Position numbers and translations under genes: made by a program. The notes below the pieces were generated by a model. That model was not told the DNA's origin. It worked only from the letters and a program-made list of their open reading frames with translations, and made no database searches. Of a stretch of DNA of 64,000 bases, positions 23,700 to 35,055 are shown in pieces (within the stretch, counting starts at the first letter, position 1; every line of letters starts with the position of its first letter). This stretch comes from Clostridiales bacterium (GTDB lineage Bacteria; Bacillota; Clostridia; Peptostreptococcales; Anaerovoracaceae), in the NCBI GenBank assembly GCA_015058215.1, contig SVCU01000010.1:456-64455 (forward strand). Reading direction: 5' to 3'.

Positions 23700-23945
23700 C
23701 TATCTGTCCTCTTCCGGAAACTGCCTTCCCTGCCGGTCCGTATACGCGTTCTCCCTGTGGATCAGCTGTCCCACGGGCACGATCTCGAACCCCTTTTCCT
23801 GCAGGATCTTCAGTACCTTCGGAAGATATTCCTCCACGGTATCCGCATTGTTATGAAAGAGTATGATGTCGCCGGCTGCCGTATTCTCCGTGACCCGGGA
23901 AACGATCTGGTCTGCGGTGAGATTTTTCCAATCGAGACTGTCCCG
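23700..23945 (-). pseudogene. 3' segment of the split NodB polysaccharide deacetylase (pdaB/pdaA-like); no start codon in the current configuration
   Basis: My translation of the minus strand, directly after an in-frame TGA (23948-23946): RDSLDWKNLTADQIVSRVTENTAAGDIILFHNNADTVEEYLPKVLKILQEKGFEIVPVGQLIHRENAYTDRQGRQFPEEDR*. It carries NodB motif 4 (DxxDW) and motif 5 (ILFH). Confidence 0.85.
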
Positions 23946-23965
23946 TCATGAAACAGGAGAACCCC
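23921..23965. other. attL-type junction (host half-site / TC core / element half-site)
   Basis: GATTTTTCCAATCGAGACTG-TC-CCGTCATGAAACAGGAGAACCCC. The hexamer GTCCCG (23940-23945) recurs at 34543-34548. Confidence 0.75.
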
Positions 23966-24064
23966 CGCATAAAGTGAGGCAGAAACGGCACGGAACCGAA
24001 ACCATCGGCGTGAAGTATGGAAAAGACAGGATGCCGGTGCAAAGCAAGGTCAGGGAGAGAGTTT

Positions 24065-25531
24065 ATGGGAGAAATCGCTATTTATGCCAGACAATCCGTG
24101 GAAAGCAAAAACAGCCTTTCCATAGAGGGACAGATCCAGTTTTGCCGCCGCCTTGCAGGGGACGGCCCCGTAAAGGTCTACCGGGACAAAGGGTTTTCCG
24201 GAAAGAATACGGAGCGGCCCGCCTTCAAACGACTGCTGCAGGATATCAAAGCGGGCCGCATCGACCGCCTGTATGTCTACCGTTTGGACCGGTTTTCCCG
24301 TTCCGTGGCGGACTTCGGCAACCTGTGGCAGATGCTACAGCGTTACGGGGTGGAATTCGTTTCCGTCAGCGAAAACTTCGATACGTCCACTCCCATGGGA
24401 AGGGCCATGCTGCACATTGTGATGGCTTTTGCTCAGCTGGAGCGGGAAACCACAGCAGAGCGTGTGCGGGATAACTGCAGAGTGCGGGCCGCCGCAGGAG
24501 CCTGGCCCGGCGGCCCGCCTCCCTTCGGCTTCGATCTTGTGCGGAAGCCGGCAGGCCCGGGAGGGCCTGTCCTCTCCCTTCTCCAGCCCAATGAGAAAGC
24601 CTCTCTGGTGCTCCACATTTTCCGGGAATATGCCCGGCCGAGCTGCACGCTGGGCAGCCTGGGGCGGCAGCTTGCTGCCGCGGGGGCCGCAGGCCCCCGC
24701 CGGGCCTTTTGGACCTCTTCTGCCCTTTCTCGCGTTTTACATAATCCTATTTATGTTAAAGCGGATGAGCAAATTCGTCTTTATTACCTCACTTCAGGTA
24801 CCGAGATCCTTTCTCCGGAATCCGCCTTCGGCGGCACCTGCGGCTGCCTGCTGCAAGGCGGAAACGCCTTGAAAAATACCCATTCTCTTCGGGTCCTTCG
24901 CGTTCCCGGCATTGTGCCTGCGGACCTGTTTCTGGCCTGTCAGGAAAAACTCTCCCGAAACCGGAGTCTGGGCGGCAATGGCAGCGGTACCTCCACCTGG
25001 CTCAGCGGTCTCCTGAAATGTGCGGACTGCGGCTACAGCATGAAGGTGATCAAAGGAAAAAGCGGCCGCCATCTTGTCTGCAGCGGCCGCTACACCCCTA
25101 TGCGCTGCAGCGCCTCCACCACCGTCTCTCTGGATGATCTGGAAACCCGGGTCACAACCATTCTGCAGGAGCATCTTACCGCTCCTTCCGCCGCATCGTT
25201 TTCCCCGCTGCCTCCCGACCCTGCACTTCAGTTTCGTCTCGCGGAGCTGGACCGCCGCAGCCAGAAACTGCTGGAAGCCTTTTCCGAAGGCTCCGGACTC
25301 CCCCGCCGTCAGCTGGAACAGGCCCTTCAAACTCTGGAACAGTGCCGCAGAACGCTGCTGGACGGACGGGAATGCCATAGGCGATCCCCGGGCATTCCTG
25401 CCCCCTTTTCCACCCTTGCTTTTTCCGAAAAAAAGGAGCTGGCGGCCCGCTTCATCCGTCGCATCGACGTTGGCGCAAAAACCTGGGATATCTTGTTCAC
25501 GCAACTTGACTTTCCCGAGACGAAAAGCTAA
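24065..25531 (+). CDS. Large serine recombinase (SpoIVCA/SprA-like)
   Basis: MGEIAIYARQSVES (catalytic Ser), YVYRLDRFSRS and the AQLERE resolvase domain. Also a recombinase domain, the zinc ribbon CADCGYSM...CSGR...C, and a C-terminal coiled-coil region. Start at ATG 24065, after AGGGAGAG. Confidence 0.92.
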   Translation: MGEIAIYARQSVESKNSLSIEGQIQFCRRLAGDGPVKVYRDKGFSGKNTERPAFKRLLQDIKAGRIDRLYVYRLDRFSRSVADFGNLWQMLQRYGVEFVSVSENFDTSTPMGRAMLHIVMAFAQLERETTAERVRDNCRVRAAAGAWPGGPPPFGFDLVRKPAGPGGPVLSLLQPNEKASLVLHIFREYARPSCTLGSLGRQLAAAGAAGPRRAFWTSSALSRVLHNPIYVKADEQIRLYYLTSGTEILSPESAFGGTCGCLLQGGNALKNTHSLRVLRVPGIVPADLFLACQEKLSRNRSLGGNGSGTSTWLSGLLKCADCGYSMKVIKGKSGRHLVCSGRYTPMRCSASTTVSLDDLETRVTTILQEHLTAPSAASFSPLPPDPALQFRLAELDRRSQKLLEAFSEGSGLPRRQLEQALQTLEQCRRTLLDGRECHRRSPGIPAPFSTLAFSEKKELAARFIRRIDVGAKTWDILFTQLDFPETKS

Positions 25532-25606
25532 GATGGAGAGGAGAGTTTTGGAGGACTTTCCATGTACTTGGAGGTACCCATGGAAAAACAACACAAGGAG
25601 ACAATC

Positions 25607-33639: not shown

Positions 33640-33693
33640 GAGATCACCTTTCTTTTGGATCATTCTGGTGCGAAACAACTAAAACCTGGTTTG

Positions 33694-34419
33694 TCATTCT
33701 GCGGTGAAGCAGCTGACCAGTGCCGCTTCTTCCTGGTCGGTGAGGGGGCGGTAAGCGCCCTTTTCCAGGGTTTCATCCAGTTCCAGCGGCCCCATTTTGA
33801 GGCGCTTCAGGTAAGTGACAGTGGCCCCGCAGGCTTCAGCCATGCGCTTTACCTGGTGGTACTTGCCCTCCTGGATGGTGACCAGAGCTGCGTTCTCGGG
33901 AAGCAGCTCCAGCTTGGCGGGAAGGCACAGATAACCGCCATCAATTGTAAGACCGGCCGCGAACTTCTCCGCAGAGCCGTCGGCAAAGGCGCCGTCGTAT
34001 TCGATGTAGTAAAGCTTGTCCACATGGTTTTTGGGGGACAGGATCTTATGGGTCAGAGGGCCGTCGTTGGTGAGCAGCAAAAGCCCTTCGCTGTCCTTAT
34101 CCAGACGGCCGGCCGGAAACAGATCGAAGCTCTGCCAGTGATCGTCCAAAAGATCCAGCACCGTGGCCGCATGTCGATCCTCTGTCGCGGTCAGGTAACC
34201 GGCGGGTTTATGAAGCATCAGATAGACATACTTCTTGTAACGGATCTCCTGCCCGTTCATGGTGAGGCAGGCCGCCTCGGGGTCCAGTTTGAATTCCGGA
34301 CTTTTGACCGTAACGCCGTCCACGGCGAATTCCCCGCTTTTGATGCGGTTTTTCAGTTCTTTTCGGGTACCCATGCCCAGATTGGACAGCACTTTATCCA
34401 GACGTTCCAGCTTTGCCAC
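33694..34419 (-). CDS. rsuA: Pseudouridine synthase, RsuA/RluB family
   Basis: S4 domain (RLDKVLSNLG) and the catalytic GRLDKDSEGLLLLTNDG. Likely GTG start at 34419, 8 nt after AAGGAG. The ORF track starts at 34428. Confidence 0.9.
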   Translation of the reverse strand: MAKLERLDKVLSNLGMGTRKELKNRIKSGEFAVDGVTVKSPEFKLDPEAACLTMNGQEIRYKKYVYLMLHKPAGYLTATEDRHAATVLDLLDDHWQSFDLFPAGRLDKDSEGLLLLTNDGPLTHKILSPKNHVDKLYYIEYDGAFADGSAEKFAAGLTIDGGYLCLPAKLELLPENAALVTIQEGKYHQVKRMAEACGATVTYLKRLKMGPLELDETLEKGAYRPLTDQEEAALVSCFTAE

Positions 34420-34446
34420 GGGGCTCACTCCTTTACAATAATATAT

Positions 34447-35055
34447 TTATGGTAGTTCATTTATGTTTCCAGTTGCTGCATACCAGTATAGCAGATTTTC
34501 CCTTCCTTTGCAATTCCAATGGGTTTCTGCTGTTGCAGGACGGTCCCGACTCCACTGGATCACATGGTAGCCGCAGTCCGCTGCCGTATCCATCAGCGTA
34601 TTGCTGTAAGAACCGAAGGGCGGCCGGAACAGGTCCGGCTGCACCCCGGTCAGCTGCAGGATGGTTTCTCCGGCGGTTTCCAGTTCCCTGCGGATTTCGG
34701 CTCCGGACAGTTTCCCCAGATCCGGGTGCGTGGCGGAATGGTTGCCGATCTCATGGCCGGCAGCGGCGATGGTCTTCACATCCTCGGGAAATTTTTTCGC
34801 CCAGAAATCCACCAGAAAAAACGTGGTTTTCACATCGTATTCCTCCAGGATGGACAAGATGGCGGCGGTGTGCTCGTTTCCCCAGGCCGCGTCGAAACTG
34901 ATGGCGATCTTATTGTCCGGCCGCTCCACGGAATAGATGGGGATCTTTCGTTCCTCCGCAACTACACCGGTCAGGGTCACCGTACACCAGACGGCAGACA
35001 GTACGACGGCACAGGTCATGATCCGCAGGATCCATTTGTAATGTTTCATTCTCAC
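34447..35055 (-). CDS. 5' segment of the split NodB polysaccharide deacetylase (pdaB/pdaA-like), with a 31-codon element-encoded tail
   Basis: N-terminal TM anchor and NodB motifs 1-3 (ISFDAAWG, HEIGNHSATH, LFRPPFG). Host-derived codons end at ...GYHVIQWSRD (codon 171, 34545-34543). The frame then runs into element DNA to a stop at 34447. Confidence 0.85.
   Translation of the reverse strand: MRMKHYKWILRIMTCAVVLSAVWCTVTLTGVVAEERKIPIYSVERPDNKIAISFDAAWGNEHTAAILSILEEYDVKTTFFLVDFWAKKFPEDVKTIAAAGHEIGNHSATHPDLGKLSGAEIRRELETAGETILQLTGVQPDLFRPPFGSYSNTLMDTAADCGYHVIQWSRDRPATAETHWNCKGRENLLYWYAATGNINELP
34521..34567. other. attR-type junction (element half-site / TC core / host half-site)
   Basis: GGGTTTCTGCTGTTGCAGGACGG-TC-CCGACTCCACTGGATCACATGG. 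Confidence 0.75.

Follow-up and report, generated by a model that had tools for sequence, protein, structure and literature searches.

A PdaB-like deacetylase gene split at one Asp codon by a 10.6-kb non-phage island, probably inserted by its own large serine recombinase, in a Clostridiales bacterium

The split deacetylase gene and its junctions

In this work, we analysed a 64,000-nucleotide stretch of contig SVCU01000010.1 from a Clostridiales bacterium (hereafter the window, i.e. the whole stretch at its full length), focusing on a PdaB-like polysaccharide deacetylase gene that is present there as two fragments and on the DNA that separates them. Both fragments lie on the minus strand and flank a 10.6-kb segment encoding a single recombinase (Table 1). 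Considering the junction sequences, the gene fragments and related loci in other genomes, we regard this segment as very probably a non-phage island, inserted into the deacetylase gene by its own large serine recombinase (LSR) and bounded by the hybrid attachment (att) sites attL and attR.

Joining the two flanks at TC restores in silico an uninterrupted 248-aa open reading frame (ORF) on the minus strand, so that the junction position at attL is fixed independently of dyad symmetry. The break falls within the conserved motif VIQWSRD/SLDWK (slash at the break), after bases 1-2 of the Asp codon. Once rebuilt, the gene encodes a polysaccharide deacetylase with a NodB domain, which among NCBIfam models matches that of the sporulation protein PdaB (TIGR02764) best and whose homologues at 54-60 % identity carry the JGI name PdaB. 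The nearest intact protein shares only 65 % identity with the rebuilt one, and no intact allele from the same species was found.

Circularising the element gives an attP, GGGTTTCTGCTGTTGCAGGACGG-TC-CCGTCATGAAACAGGAGAACCCC, whose arms are complementary at 19 of 23 positions (48-bp dyad), and joining the host flanks gives an attB, TCCAATCGAGACTG-TC-CCGACTCCACTGGA, with a weaker dyad on the same axis (10 of 14 arm matches, 11 of 23 if extended). The initial annotation had described this 48-bp palindrome and the weaker host dyad, and a computational recount returned identical scores for both; GTCCCG, which it had named as the only identity between the junctions, is indeed the sole block common to the left and right ones. 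Both junction strings are unique in the window (one match at 23933, one at 34521). They recur in two further contigs from other assemblies, i.e. L089, 100 % identical to the window over 15.7 kb, and L088, which comes from another sample, is 97.8 % identical, covers attR and has the same right junction (handles of this form designate the loci compared). The window organism is contained in the samples JGI 3300032167 and ENA ERZ28653809. The sole att-arm difference between the window and L088 strains is a G to A change in L088 at window position 34538, i.e. P-arm position 6, where the window's own two arms already mismatch and the family consensus is uninformative.

Table 1. Features of the island, of the interrupted gene and of its neighbour in the window
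Feature	Position	Strand	Basis or detail
attL	23927..23965	n/a	host B' arm (symmetric 14 nt = 23927-23940), crossover TC 23941-23942, element P' arm 23943-23965
attR	34521..34559	n/a	element P arm 34521-34543, crossover TC 34544-34545, host B arm 34546-34559
Integrated island, 10,603 bp including one TC copy	23943..34545	n/a	junction analysis and ORF restoration
3' fragment of PdaB-like deacetylase gene	23700..23942	-	from GA of Asp169 to stop codon
5' fragment of the same PdaB-like polysaccharide deacetylase gene	34544..35049	-	codons 1-169, ends with GA of Asp169
Sigma-E-like promoter candidate, TCATGAA-N15-CATAAAGT	23946..23973	+	putative; positional counterpart of the relatives' motif
LSR, 488 aa	24065..25531	+	Pfam PF00239, PF07508, PF13408; fold matches to solved LSRs
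NIR_SIR small nitrite/sulfite-reductase-like hemoprotein	25562..26344	+	domain match
ATP-binding cassette (ABC) importer, iron-chelate, heme or corrinoid type	26475..29251	+	binding protein 26475-27443, FecCD permease 27406-28503, ATPase 28496-29251
Siroheme synthase (CysG-like)	29274..30821	+	NF007922, 398 bits versus cutoff 400
Four function-unassigned ORFs	30867..33152	-	30867-31808, 31903-32112, 32093-32536, 32571-33152; partly in low-GC patch
RsuA-type pseudouridine synthase	33694..34428	-	cargo
Predicted membrane protein, 366 aa	35052-36152	-	ORF

Site symmetry compared with chance

The symmetry of the window sites is confirmed to be far beyond chance. The binomial probability of at least 19 matches in 23 is 1.1e-8 for attP, and that of at least 10 in 14 is 3.4e-4 for attB. 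None of 2,000,000 random position pairs drawn from the window scored 19, and in an exhaustive scan of left/right pairs around the recombinase gene (n = 10,961,000) no other pair scored as high as the real one. A score of 10 of 14 or better was reached at just 43 axes over the entire window (6.7e-4). Along the rebuilt attP, TC stands out as an isolated spike (19, all remaining axes at most 11), as it does along the rebuilt attB (10, all remaining axes at most 6); the same axis scan of the hybrid attL and attR sites found no symmetry at TC.

The recombinase

The recombinase gene begins 122 bp inside the left end of the element and is the only one that the element carries; in L089, the gene call starts at the equivalent of 24065. 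The enzyme is a complete LSR, with entire Resolvase, Recombinase and Zn_ribbon_recom domains (PF00239 E = 2.9e-40). Its nucleophile motif YARQS aligned with YTRVS of the TP901-1 integrase, and S11 is invariant in the family alignment, as are the four zinc-ribbon cysteines (Cys 319, 322, 339 and 348). The ORF is intact and keeps all family-invariant residues. In the AlphaFold model (predicted local distance difference test score of 80), two long helices (386-407 and 414-439) follow the ribbon strands. The best fold matches were the full-length SPbeta (the top match), PhiC31 and Bxb1 integrases in complexes with att DNA, followed by the DNA-binding domains of the LI integrase, and TnpX was a weak sequence match. 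The identical protein is confined to this organism, its next relatives being members of a very large family at about 50-55 % identity.

Junctions across the family and a natural empty site

Related loci were retrieved by a family-alignment scan of one genome per species, which gave 80 loci; all retrieved loci together amounted to 87. Every one of the 62 distinct family junctions carries GA on the gene strand (i.e. TC on the plus strand of the window), in the same Asp codon. Moreover, GA is the sole sequence shared by attL and attR in 5 of 14 distinct pairs, and exchange must therefore occur at GA.

Rebuilt attP dyads of the family score 13-22 of 23 in most pairs, and consensus arms could be derived for both types of site (P-type ..C.t.cGcaACAg.tgGAAa; B-type cAc.ctCcACTGGA). 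The outer motif TGGA occupies positions 11-14 in B arms and 16-19 in P arms, and the half-site matrices align best, with a sharp peak, at a 5-bp shift. The same anatomy is known from Listeria integrase sites, in which the outer motif of the zinc-ribbon domain lies 5 bp nearer the centre in attB than in attP (PMC3783163). The shifted motif is clear at the family level only, being partly recognisable in the window's own four arms (AGAA in P arms versus TGGA in B arms).

A natural empty site was found for one relative, L003, of which a sister lineage (P0241, L090) with conserved synteny holds an intact allele. This site is identical at 89 of 92 positions, without any indel, to the attB predicted for L003. 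Rebuilt deacetylase genes are intact and full-length in L003, L035, L049, L050 and L060. Directly after the intact deacetylase gene of the sister lineage we observed a type II CRISPR-Cas9 locus (cas9-cas1-cas2; L090:6978-11463), the genes at this place in L003 being different.

The initial annotation had favoured a serine over a tyrosine recombinase, with strand exchange at the central TC. The enzyme class, the family junctions and the half-site anatomy support the former, and the latter is backed by the comparison, i.e. by the GA junctions, by the pairs that share nothing else and by the empty site. We infer the following course, with catalysis attributed to this enzyme. A recombinase dimer would bind each of the imperfectly symmetric sites of roughly 40-50 bp; the four subunits would then make staggered cuts, 2 bp apart, in the two strands at the central TC (on the gene strand, GA of the Asp codon in QW-x-x-D-SLDW), rotate and religate. 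Because of this 2-bp stagger, integration would duplicate the central dinucleotide only and excision would restore the reading frame exactly. The sequence of the attB dyad codes for the conserved residues I-Q-W and D-W-K, which explains the persistence of the target across taxa.

Distribution and cargo of the family

The loci found by the scan belong mostly to Oscillospiraceae, Lachnospiraceae and other Clostridia, and their recombinases share 34-55 % identity with the window enzyme. They constitute a large clade, mostly located beside the same gene split at this codon and with freely varying cargo. Cultured strains are among the carriers, i.e. Pseudoflavonifractor sp. HCP28S3_F10 (L027), in which both halves of the gene were observed, and Bengtsoniella intestinalis BP47G (L028) and Anaerotignum lactatifermentans An390 (L053), with one fragment observed in each. 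Deacetylase gene fragments were detected at 54 of the 87 loci, nearly all of them broken at residues 165-174, and no intact deacetylase copy stood beside the recombinase at any of the 87; three relatives picked at random each lay near a truncated Polysacc_deac_1 gene.

Element sizes range from 2.6 to 12.5 kb. All-against-all clustering of the ORFs of 13 elements left the recombinase as the only common gene, the smallest elements carrying one unrelated gene each (amidase, ATPase-nuclease or pyridoxal phosphate enzyme). Minimal elements of 2.6-4.5 kb keep an intact recombinase and att arms, and no transfer or phage functions were found in the elements examined. The smallest element (2.6 kb, in L060) consists of the recombinase and an Amidase_3 gene only (N-acetylmuramoyl-L-alanine amidase, L060:7869-8732), so that its cargo and the interrupted gene act on the same substrate class.

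Some loci depart from the simple arrangement. In L052, the 5' and 3' deacetylase fragments (7438-7899 and 11650-11877) are on opposite strands, implying either that an inversion had one of its ends in the element or that the contig is misassembled. L006, and likewise L007, show two successive 3' fragments (13930-14202 and 14975-15181), each with its own attL-like junction, and the attP rebuilt from the inner fragment is a near-perfect palindrome; these double fragments suggest tandem or remnant elements. Additionally, a second hot spot for insertions into this deacetylase gene lies in the FDAAWG motif, at its Trp-Gly codons (L048:3906-8434; L037:14321-21073; L015 near 11879). L048 and L037 have an element-side arm in common (...CATTACCC/TGGGG), and the L037 insert contains a separate recombinase-like ORF (14817-15860, minus strand) with only 24 % identity to the window enzyme, which suggests that a second element family aims at the same gene.

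Cargo of the island and host neighbourhood

The window island is non-phage and its cargo consists of metabolic and transport genes (Table 1). A PHROG scan of eight element proteins yielded no family with an assigned phage function, and no Rfam match was obtained in 22500-36500. GC content is 0.40-0.42 in the patch 31000-32500 versus about 0.57 elsewhere, the rest of the element resembling the host, and this drop suggests a nested acquisition. Among the function-unassigned ORFs, the 313-aa product of 30867-31808 matches, over its C-terminal 120 residues, the candidate anti-phage defence family PDC-S68 (E = 4e-22).

The host surroundings are a core Firmicutes region, with fmt-rsmB-stp-PASTA kinase-rsgA-rpe on one side and ssb-plsX-rnc-smc-ftsY on the other. 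The end of the ORF for the predicted membrane protein is 2 nt from the deacetylase start codon, and the two genes are probably co-transcribed; no Pfam, NCBIfam or PADLOC match was found for this ORF.

Possible excision during sporulation and alternative readings

By analogy with skin in sigK, a sigma-E-type promoter before the recombinase gene could drive excision of the island in the mother cell at sporulation; the deacetylase gene would thereby be reassembled where it is needed and the spore would keep the island. We consider such a sporulation-coupled excision evenly balanced between being right and wrong, and its timing and direction control are suppositions. Two sets of observations bear on it, i.e. 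the sequences upstream of the recombinase genes and the state of the split gene.

The motif CATAnnnT occurs upstream of the recombinase genes at 45 of 83 loci, versus 15 +/- 3 in shuffled sequences; among relatives with at least 41 % identity, it stands at a constant place in 29 of the approximately 37 distinct upstream regions. In close relatives the full motif reads [G/T]CATxxx-N14/15-CATAnnnT and is followed by a strong ribosome-binding site and, in most cases, by an ORF of 35-49 aa in front of the recombinase. Its geometry equals that of the Bacillus subtilis sigma-E consensus, kmATATT-N14-CATACAnT. It is also that of mapped Clostridioides difficile sigma-E promoters, including the promoter of the skin recombination directionality factor (RDF) (promoter set in PMC7438776 Table S6). 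We trained sigma-E and sigma-K matrices on mapped C. difficile promoters and used 821 upstream regions as controls. Sigma-E scores of the recombinase upstream regions exceeded those of the controls (p = 0.002 and 1e-7), a result to be taken as suggestive only, given that training on promoters of an AT-rich genome limits the matrix to moderate discrimination (17 % of control regions clear the minimum of the training set). A sigma-K promoter model was rejected, showing no enrichment over controls. Many host deacetylase genes of the family also have strong sigma-E-type matches upstream, and pdaB of B. subtilis is sigma-E-dependent. In C. difficile, three NodB deacetylases depend on sigma-E (PMC3789822). 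The -35 part of the window promoter candidate lies within the P' arm, and this overlap suggests that binding of the site might be coupled to expression of the recombinase in a simple form of autoregulation.

Regarding the split gene, the 5' fragments of the window and of L088 differ by 6 synonymous and 1 non-synonymous changes (ratio of non-synonymous to synonymous polymorphism, pN/pS, of 0.05), for which a binomial estimate gives P of about 0.001 under neutrality, and the adjoining element DNA is at least as divergent. These counts show apparent purifying selection on the 5' fragment while the gene is split. In the L003-type species, the split allele is represented by 274 member sequences, and an intact allele was not recovered at any identity above 92 %. 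Taken together, the selection, the full-length rebuilt genes and the prevalent split allele argue that the gene is kept despite the split, as expected if it were reassembled when needed.

Several results weigh against a developmental role, or against its extension to this copy. The window promoter match is weak (10.8 bits with the position weight matrix, where about 28 % of control upstream regions reach 10 bits), and no convincing sigma-E promoter was found upstream of the window host operon, the best score being 4.6 bits. With 208 bits, the host gene does not reach the PdaB equivalog cutoff of 237 bits. Neither the predicted 30-bp attB (empty site) nor the 30-bp attP (circular junction) had an exact match in metagenome contigs, nor had the attP in viral contigs, so that excision of exactly this element is undocumented. 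No RDF was identified in the window, and the clustering of 13 elements yielded no accessory gene common to the family; in particular, a small ORF found upstream of the recombinase in relatives (see below) is absent from the window, where tblastn and hidden Markov model searches gave no match. Finally, recombinase and host-gene divergence are only modestly correlated (r = 0.27-0.37, p <= 0.003), and in one pair, L037 and L038, the recombinases are 90 % identical and the host gene fragments 71 % identical, indicating horizontal transfer. From this modest correlation and this pair, the elements appear to be inherited in part vertically while also moving horizontally to some extent; a model of strict co-speciation between the recombinase and the gene that it splits was rejected on the same r values.

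The strongest alternative is a plain integrative island without any developmental role, for which the conserved 40-bp stretch would be a mere landing pad and the deacetylase would be inactive as long as the island stays; we hold this to be a real possibility, if short of probable. The miscellaneous cargo and the evident horizontal transfer fit it, as do the weak promoter match and the lack of an identifiable RDF in the window, and LSR clusters are known to converge on conserved coding sites generally, with no link to development (PMC10083194). It sits less easily with gene halves that are open and full-length across many hosts, with the low pN/pS in the split state and with the split allele of the L003-type species. 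Nor would it lead one to expect a sigma-E-type motif conserved before the recombinase operon, or minimal elements devoid of transfer functions that nevertheless retain an intact recombinase and att arms.

A second alternative starts from the same integration and supposes a locked-in relic, i.e. a copy that, having lost its directionality factor, is unable to excise and leaves the gene permanently split in this lineage. It draws on a conserved 35-49-aa ORF (motif ..H-T-H-P-x-Y..ER..C..L), which we observed between the sigma-E-like promoter and the recombinase, about 20-150 nt before its start, in L002, L005, L007, L012, L013, L016-L019, L025, L029, L030, L035 and L066, and which is a candidate RDF. 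In the window, only 91 nt separate the -10-like element from the recombinase start codon, and no homologue of this ORF was found elsewhere in the window; the lack of an identifiable directionality factor would fit a locked-in state of this copy. We nevertheless judge it unlikely, considering that the recombinase ORF is intact with every family-invariant residue kept, that the att arms are well preserved (19 of 23), that the 5' gene fragment appears to be under purifying selection, and that the small ORF, a candidate for the RDF role only, is also missing from more distant family members.

The same end anatomy would be expected of a DDE-type transposon whose terminal inverted repeats measure 23 bp and which duplicates 2 bp of its target, as the rebuilt attP palindrome can formally be read as imperfect inverted repeats at the termini with a copy of TC on either side. 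No transposase was found in the element, whose only recombinase is the LSR; every extracted family junction lies at the same nucleotide of the same codon, the target is itself dyad-symmetric on the same axis, and the P and B arms show the LSR-specific 5-bp offset. The missing transposase, the strict site specificity and this offset exclude such a transposon for practical purposes, and we give it very little credence. Chance symmetry or an assembly chimera can be dismissed almost entirely. Pairs scoring 18 of 23 do occur elsewhere in the scan of about 11 million pairs, yet the observed score has a probability of about 1e-8 and falls at a junction that the restored ORF defines independently, and the same junctions are present in two contigs from other assemblies.

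Significance

If the gene is of sporulation type, as its best model suggests, a peptidoglycan deacetylase joins the short list of recombinase-split sporulation-type genes (sigK, spoVFB, spoVR, spsM, gerE and yabG), and such splitting is widespread in uncultured Oscillospiraceae and Lachnospiraceae, beyond a few Bacillus and Clostridium strains. In the annotation of genomes, including metagenome-assembled ones, the split gene appears as two pseudogene fragments, which may mislead predictions of sporulation capacity. The family also provides dozens of natural attP/attB pairs, with recombinases diverged to 35 % identity acting on one conserved 40-bp target, a useful resource both for understanding and for engineering the specificity of serine integrases.

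A more far-reaching proposal, which we put forward tentatively and rate below an even chance, is that the PdaB-like gene might act as a major, so far overlooked developmental switch point in Clostridia of the gut and of the environment. In the mother cell, islands of variable cargo would be excised from one Asp codon by a large sigma-E-transcribed LSR clade, and from the FDAAWG Trp-Gly codons by another recombinase family unrelated to it; in some species, the island would be fixed and an obligatory component of the maturation of the spore cortex.

Comparison with known systems

TnpX of Tn4451 and TndX of Tn5397 exchange strands at a GA dinucleotide and, like the window enzyme, are LSRs of small non-phage clostridial elements. 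They differ from the present family in their relaxed target choice, as opposed to strict site specificity, and in extra C-terminal domains that are missing here. The Listeria A118/LI integrase shares with this family half-sites of about 20-25 bp, a central non-palindromic dinucleotide and the 5-bp shift of the outer motif (PMC3783163), whereas the att sequences themselves show no similarity.

Concerning target choice, Durrant et al. 2022 reported that many divergent LSR clusters share one conserved coding-sequence site, with ComM/Mg-chelatase and prolyl isomerase as examples (PMC10083194); the text and supplements checked contain no mention of deacetylase, Polysacc_deac_1 or PF01522. In the literature searched, from which most subscription journals were outside coverage, no earlier description of this target gene was found and no deacetylase occurs among the targets of sporulation-gene intervening elements. 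The general principles, i.e. intervening elements in sporulation genes and convergent LSR targeting of conserved coding sites, are already known, and the family of deacetylase-targeting islands is apparently undescribed.

Among these intervening elements, SPbeta (SprA/SprB) in spsM, vfbin in spoVFB, vrin in spoVR and yin in yabG are cases of LSR-mediated interruption and reconstitution of mother-cell genes (PMC4191935, PMC5499854, PMC10747680). Unlike the window family, they are prophages, whole or as remnants, and most of them are known from one species or strain only. The gin element in gerE of Bacillus cereus (GirC and GirX) is likewise non-phage and, by means of a serine recombinase acting at a short common sequence, reconstitutes a sporulation gene (PMC5595907). 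It measures 28.6 kb, encodes three recombinases and has a common core of 9 bp, compared with one recombinase, sizes down to 2.6 kb and 2 bp obligatorily shared in the present family.

The skin element in sigK (SpoIVCA in B. subtilis; CD1231 with the RDF CD1234 in C. difficile) resembles the window island in that an LSR island splits a sporulation-type gene and precise excision rebuilds the ORF. For skin, excision and RDF are known, whereas the window island is described in silico and no RDF was identified in the window. The two also differ in their target, a sigma factor versus a PdaB-like deacetylase, and in the cargo, which is not prophage-like in the window. In C. difficile, a sigma-E-dependent component confers cell-type specificity on skin excision (PMC5025042); in the present family, a sigma-E-like motif precedes the recombinase operon itself.

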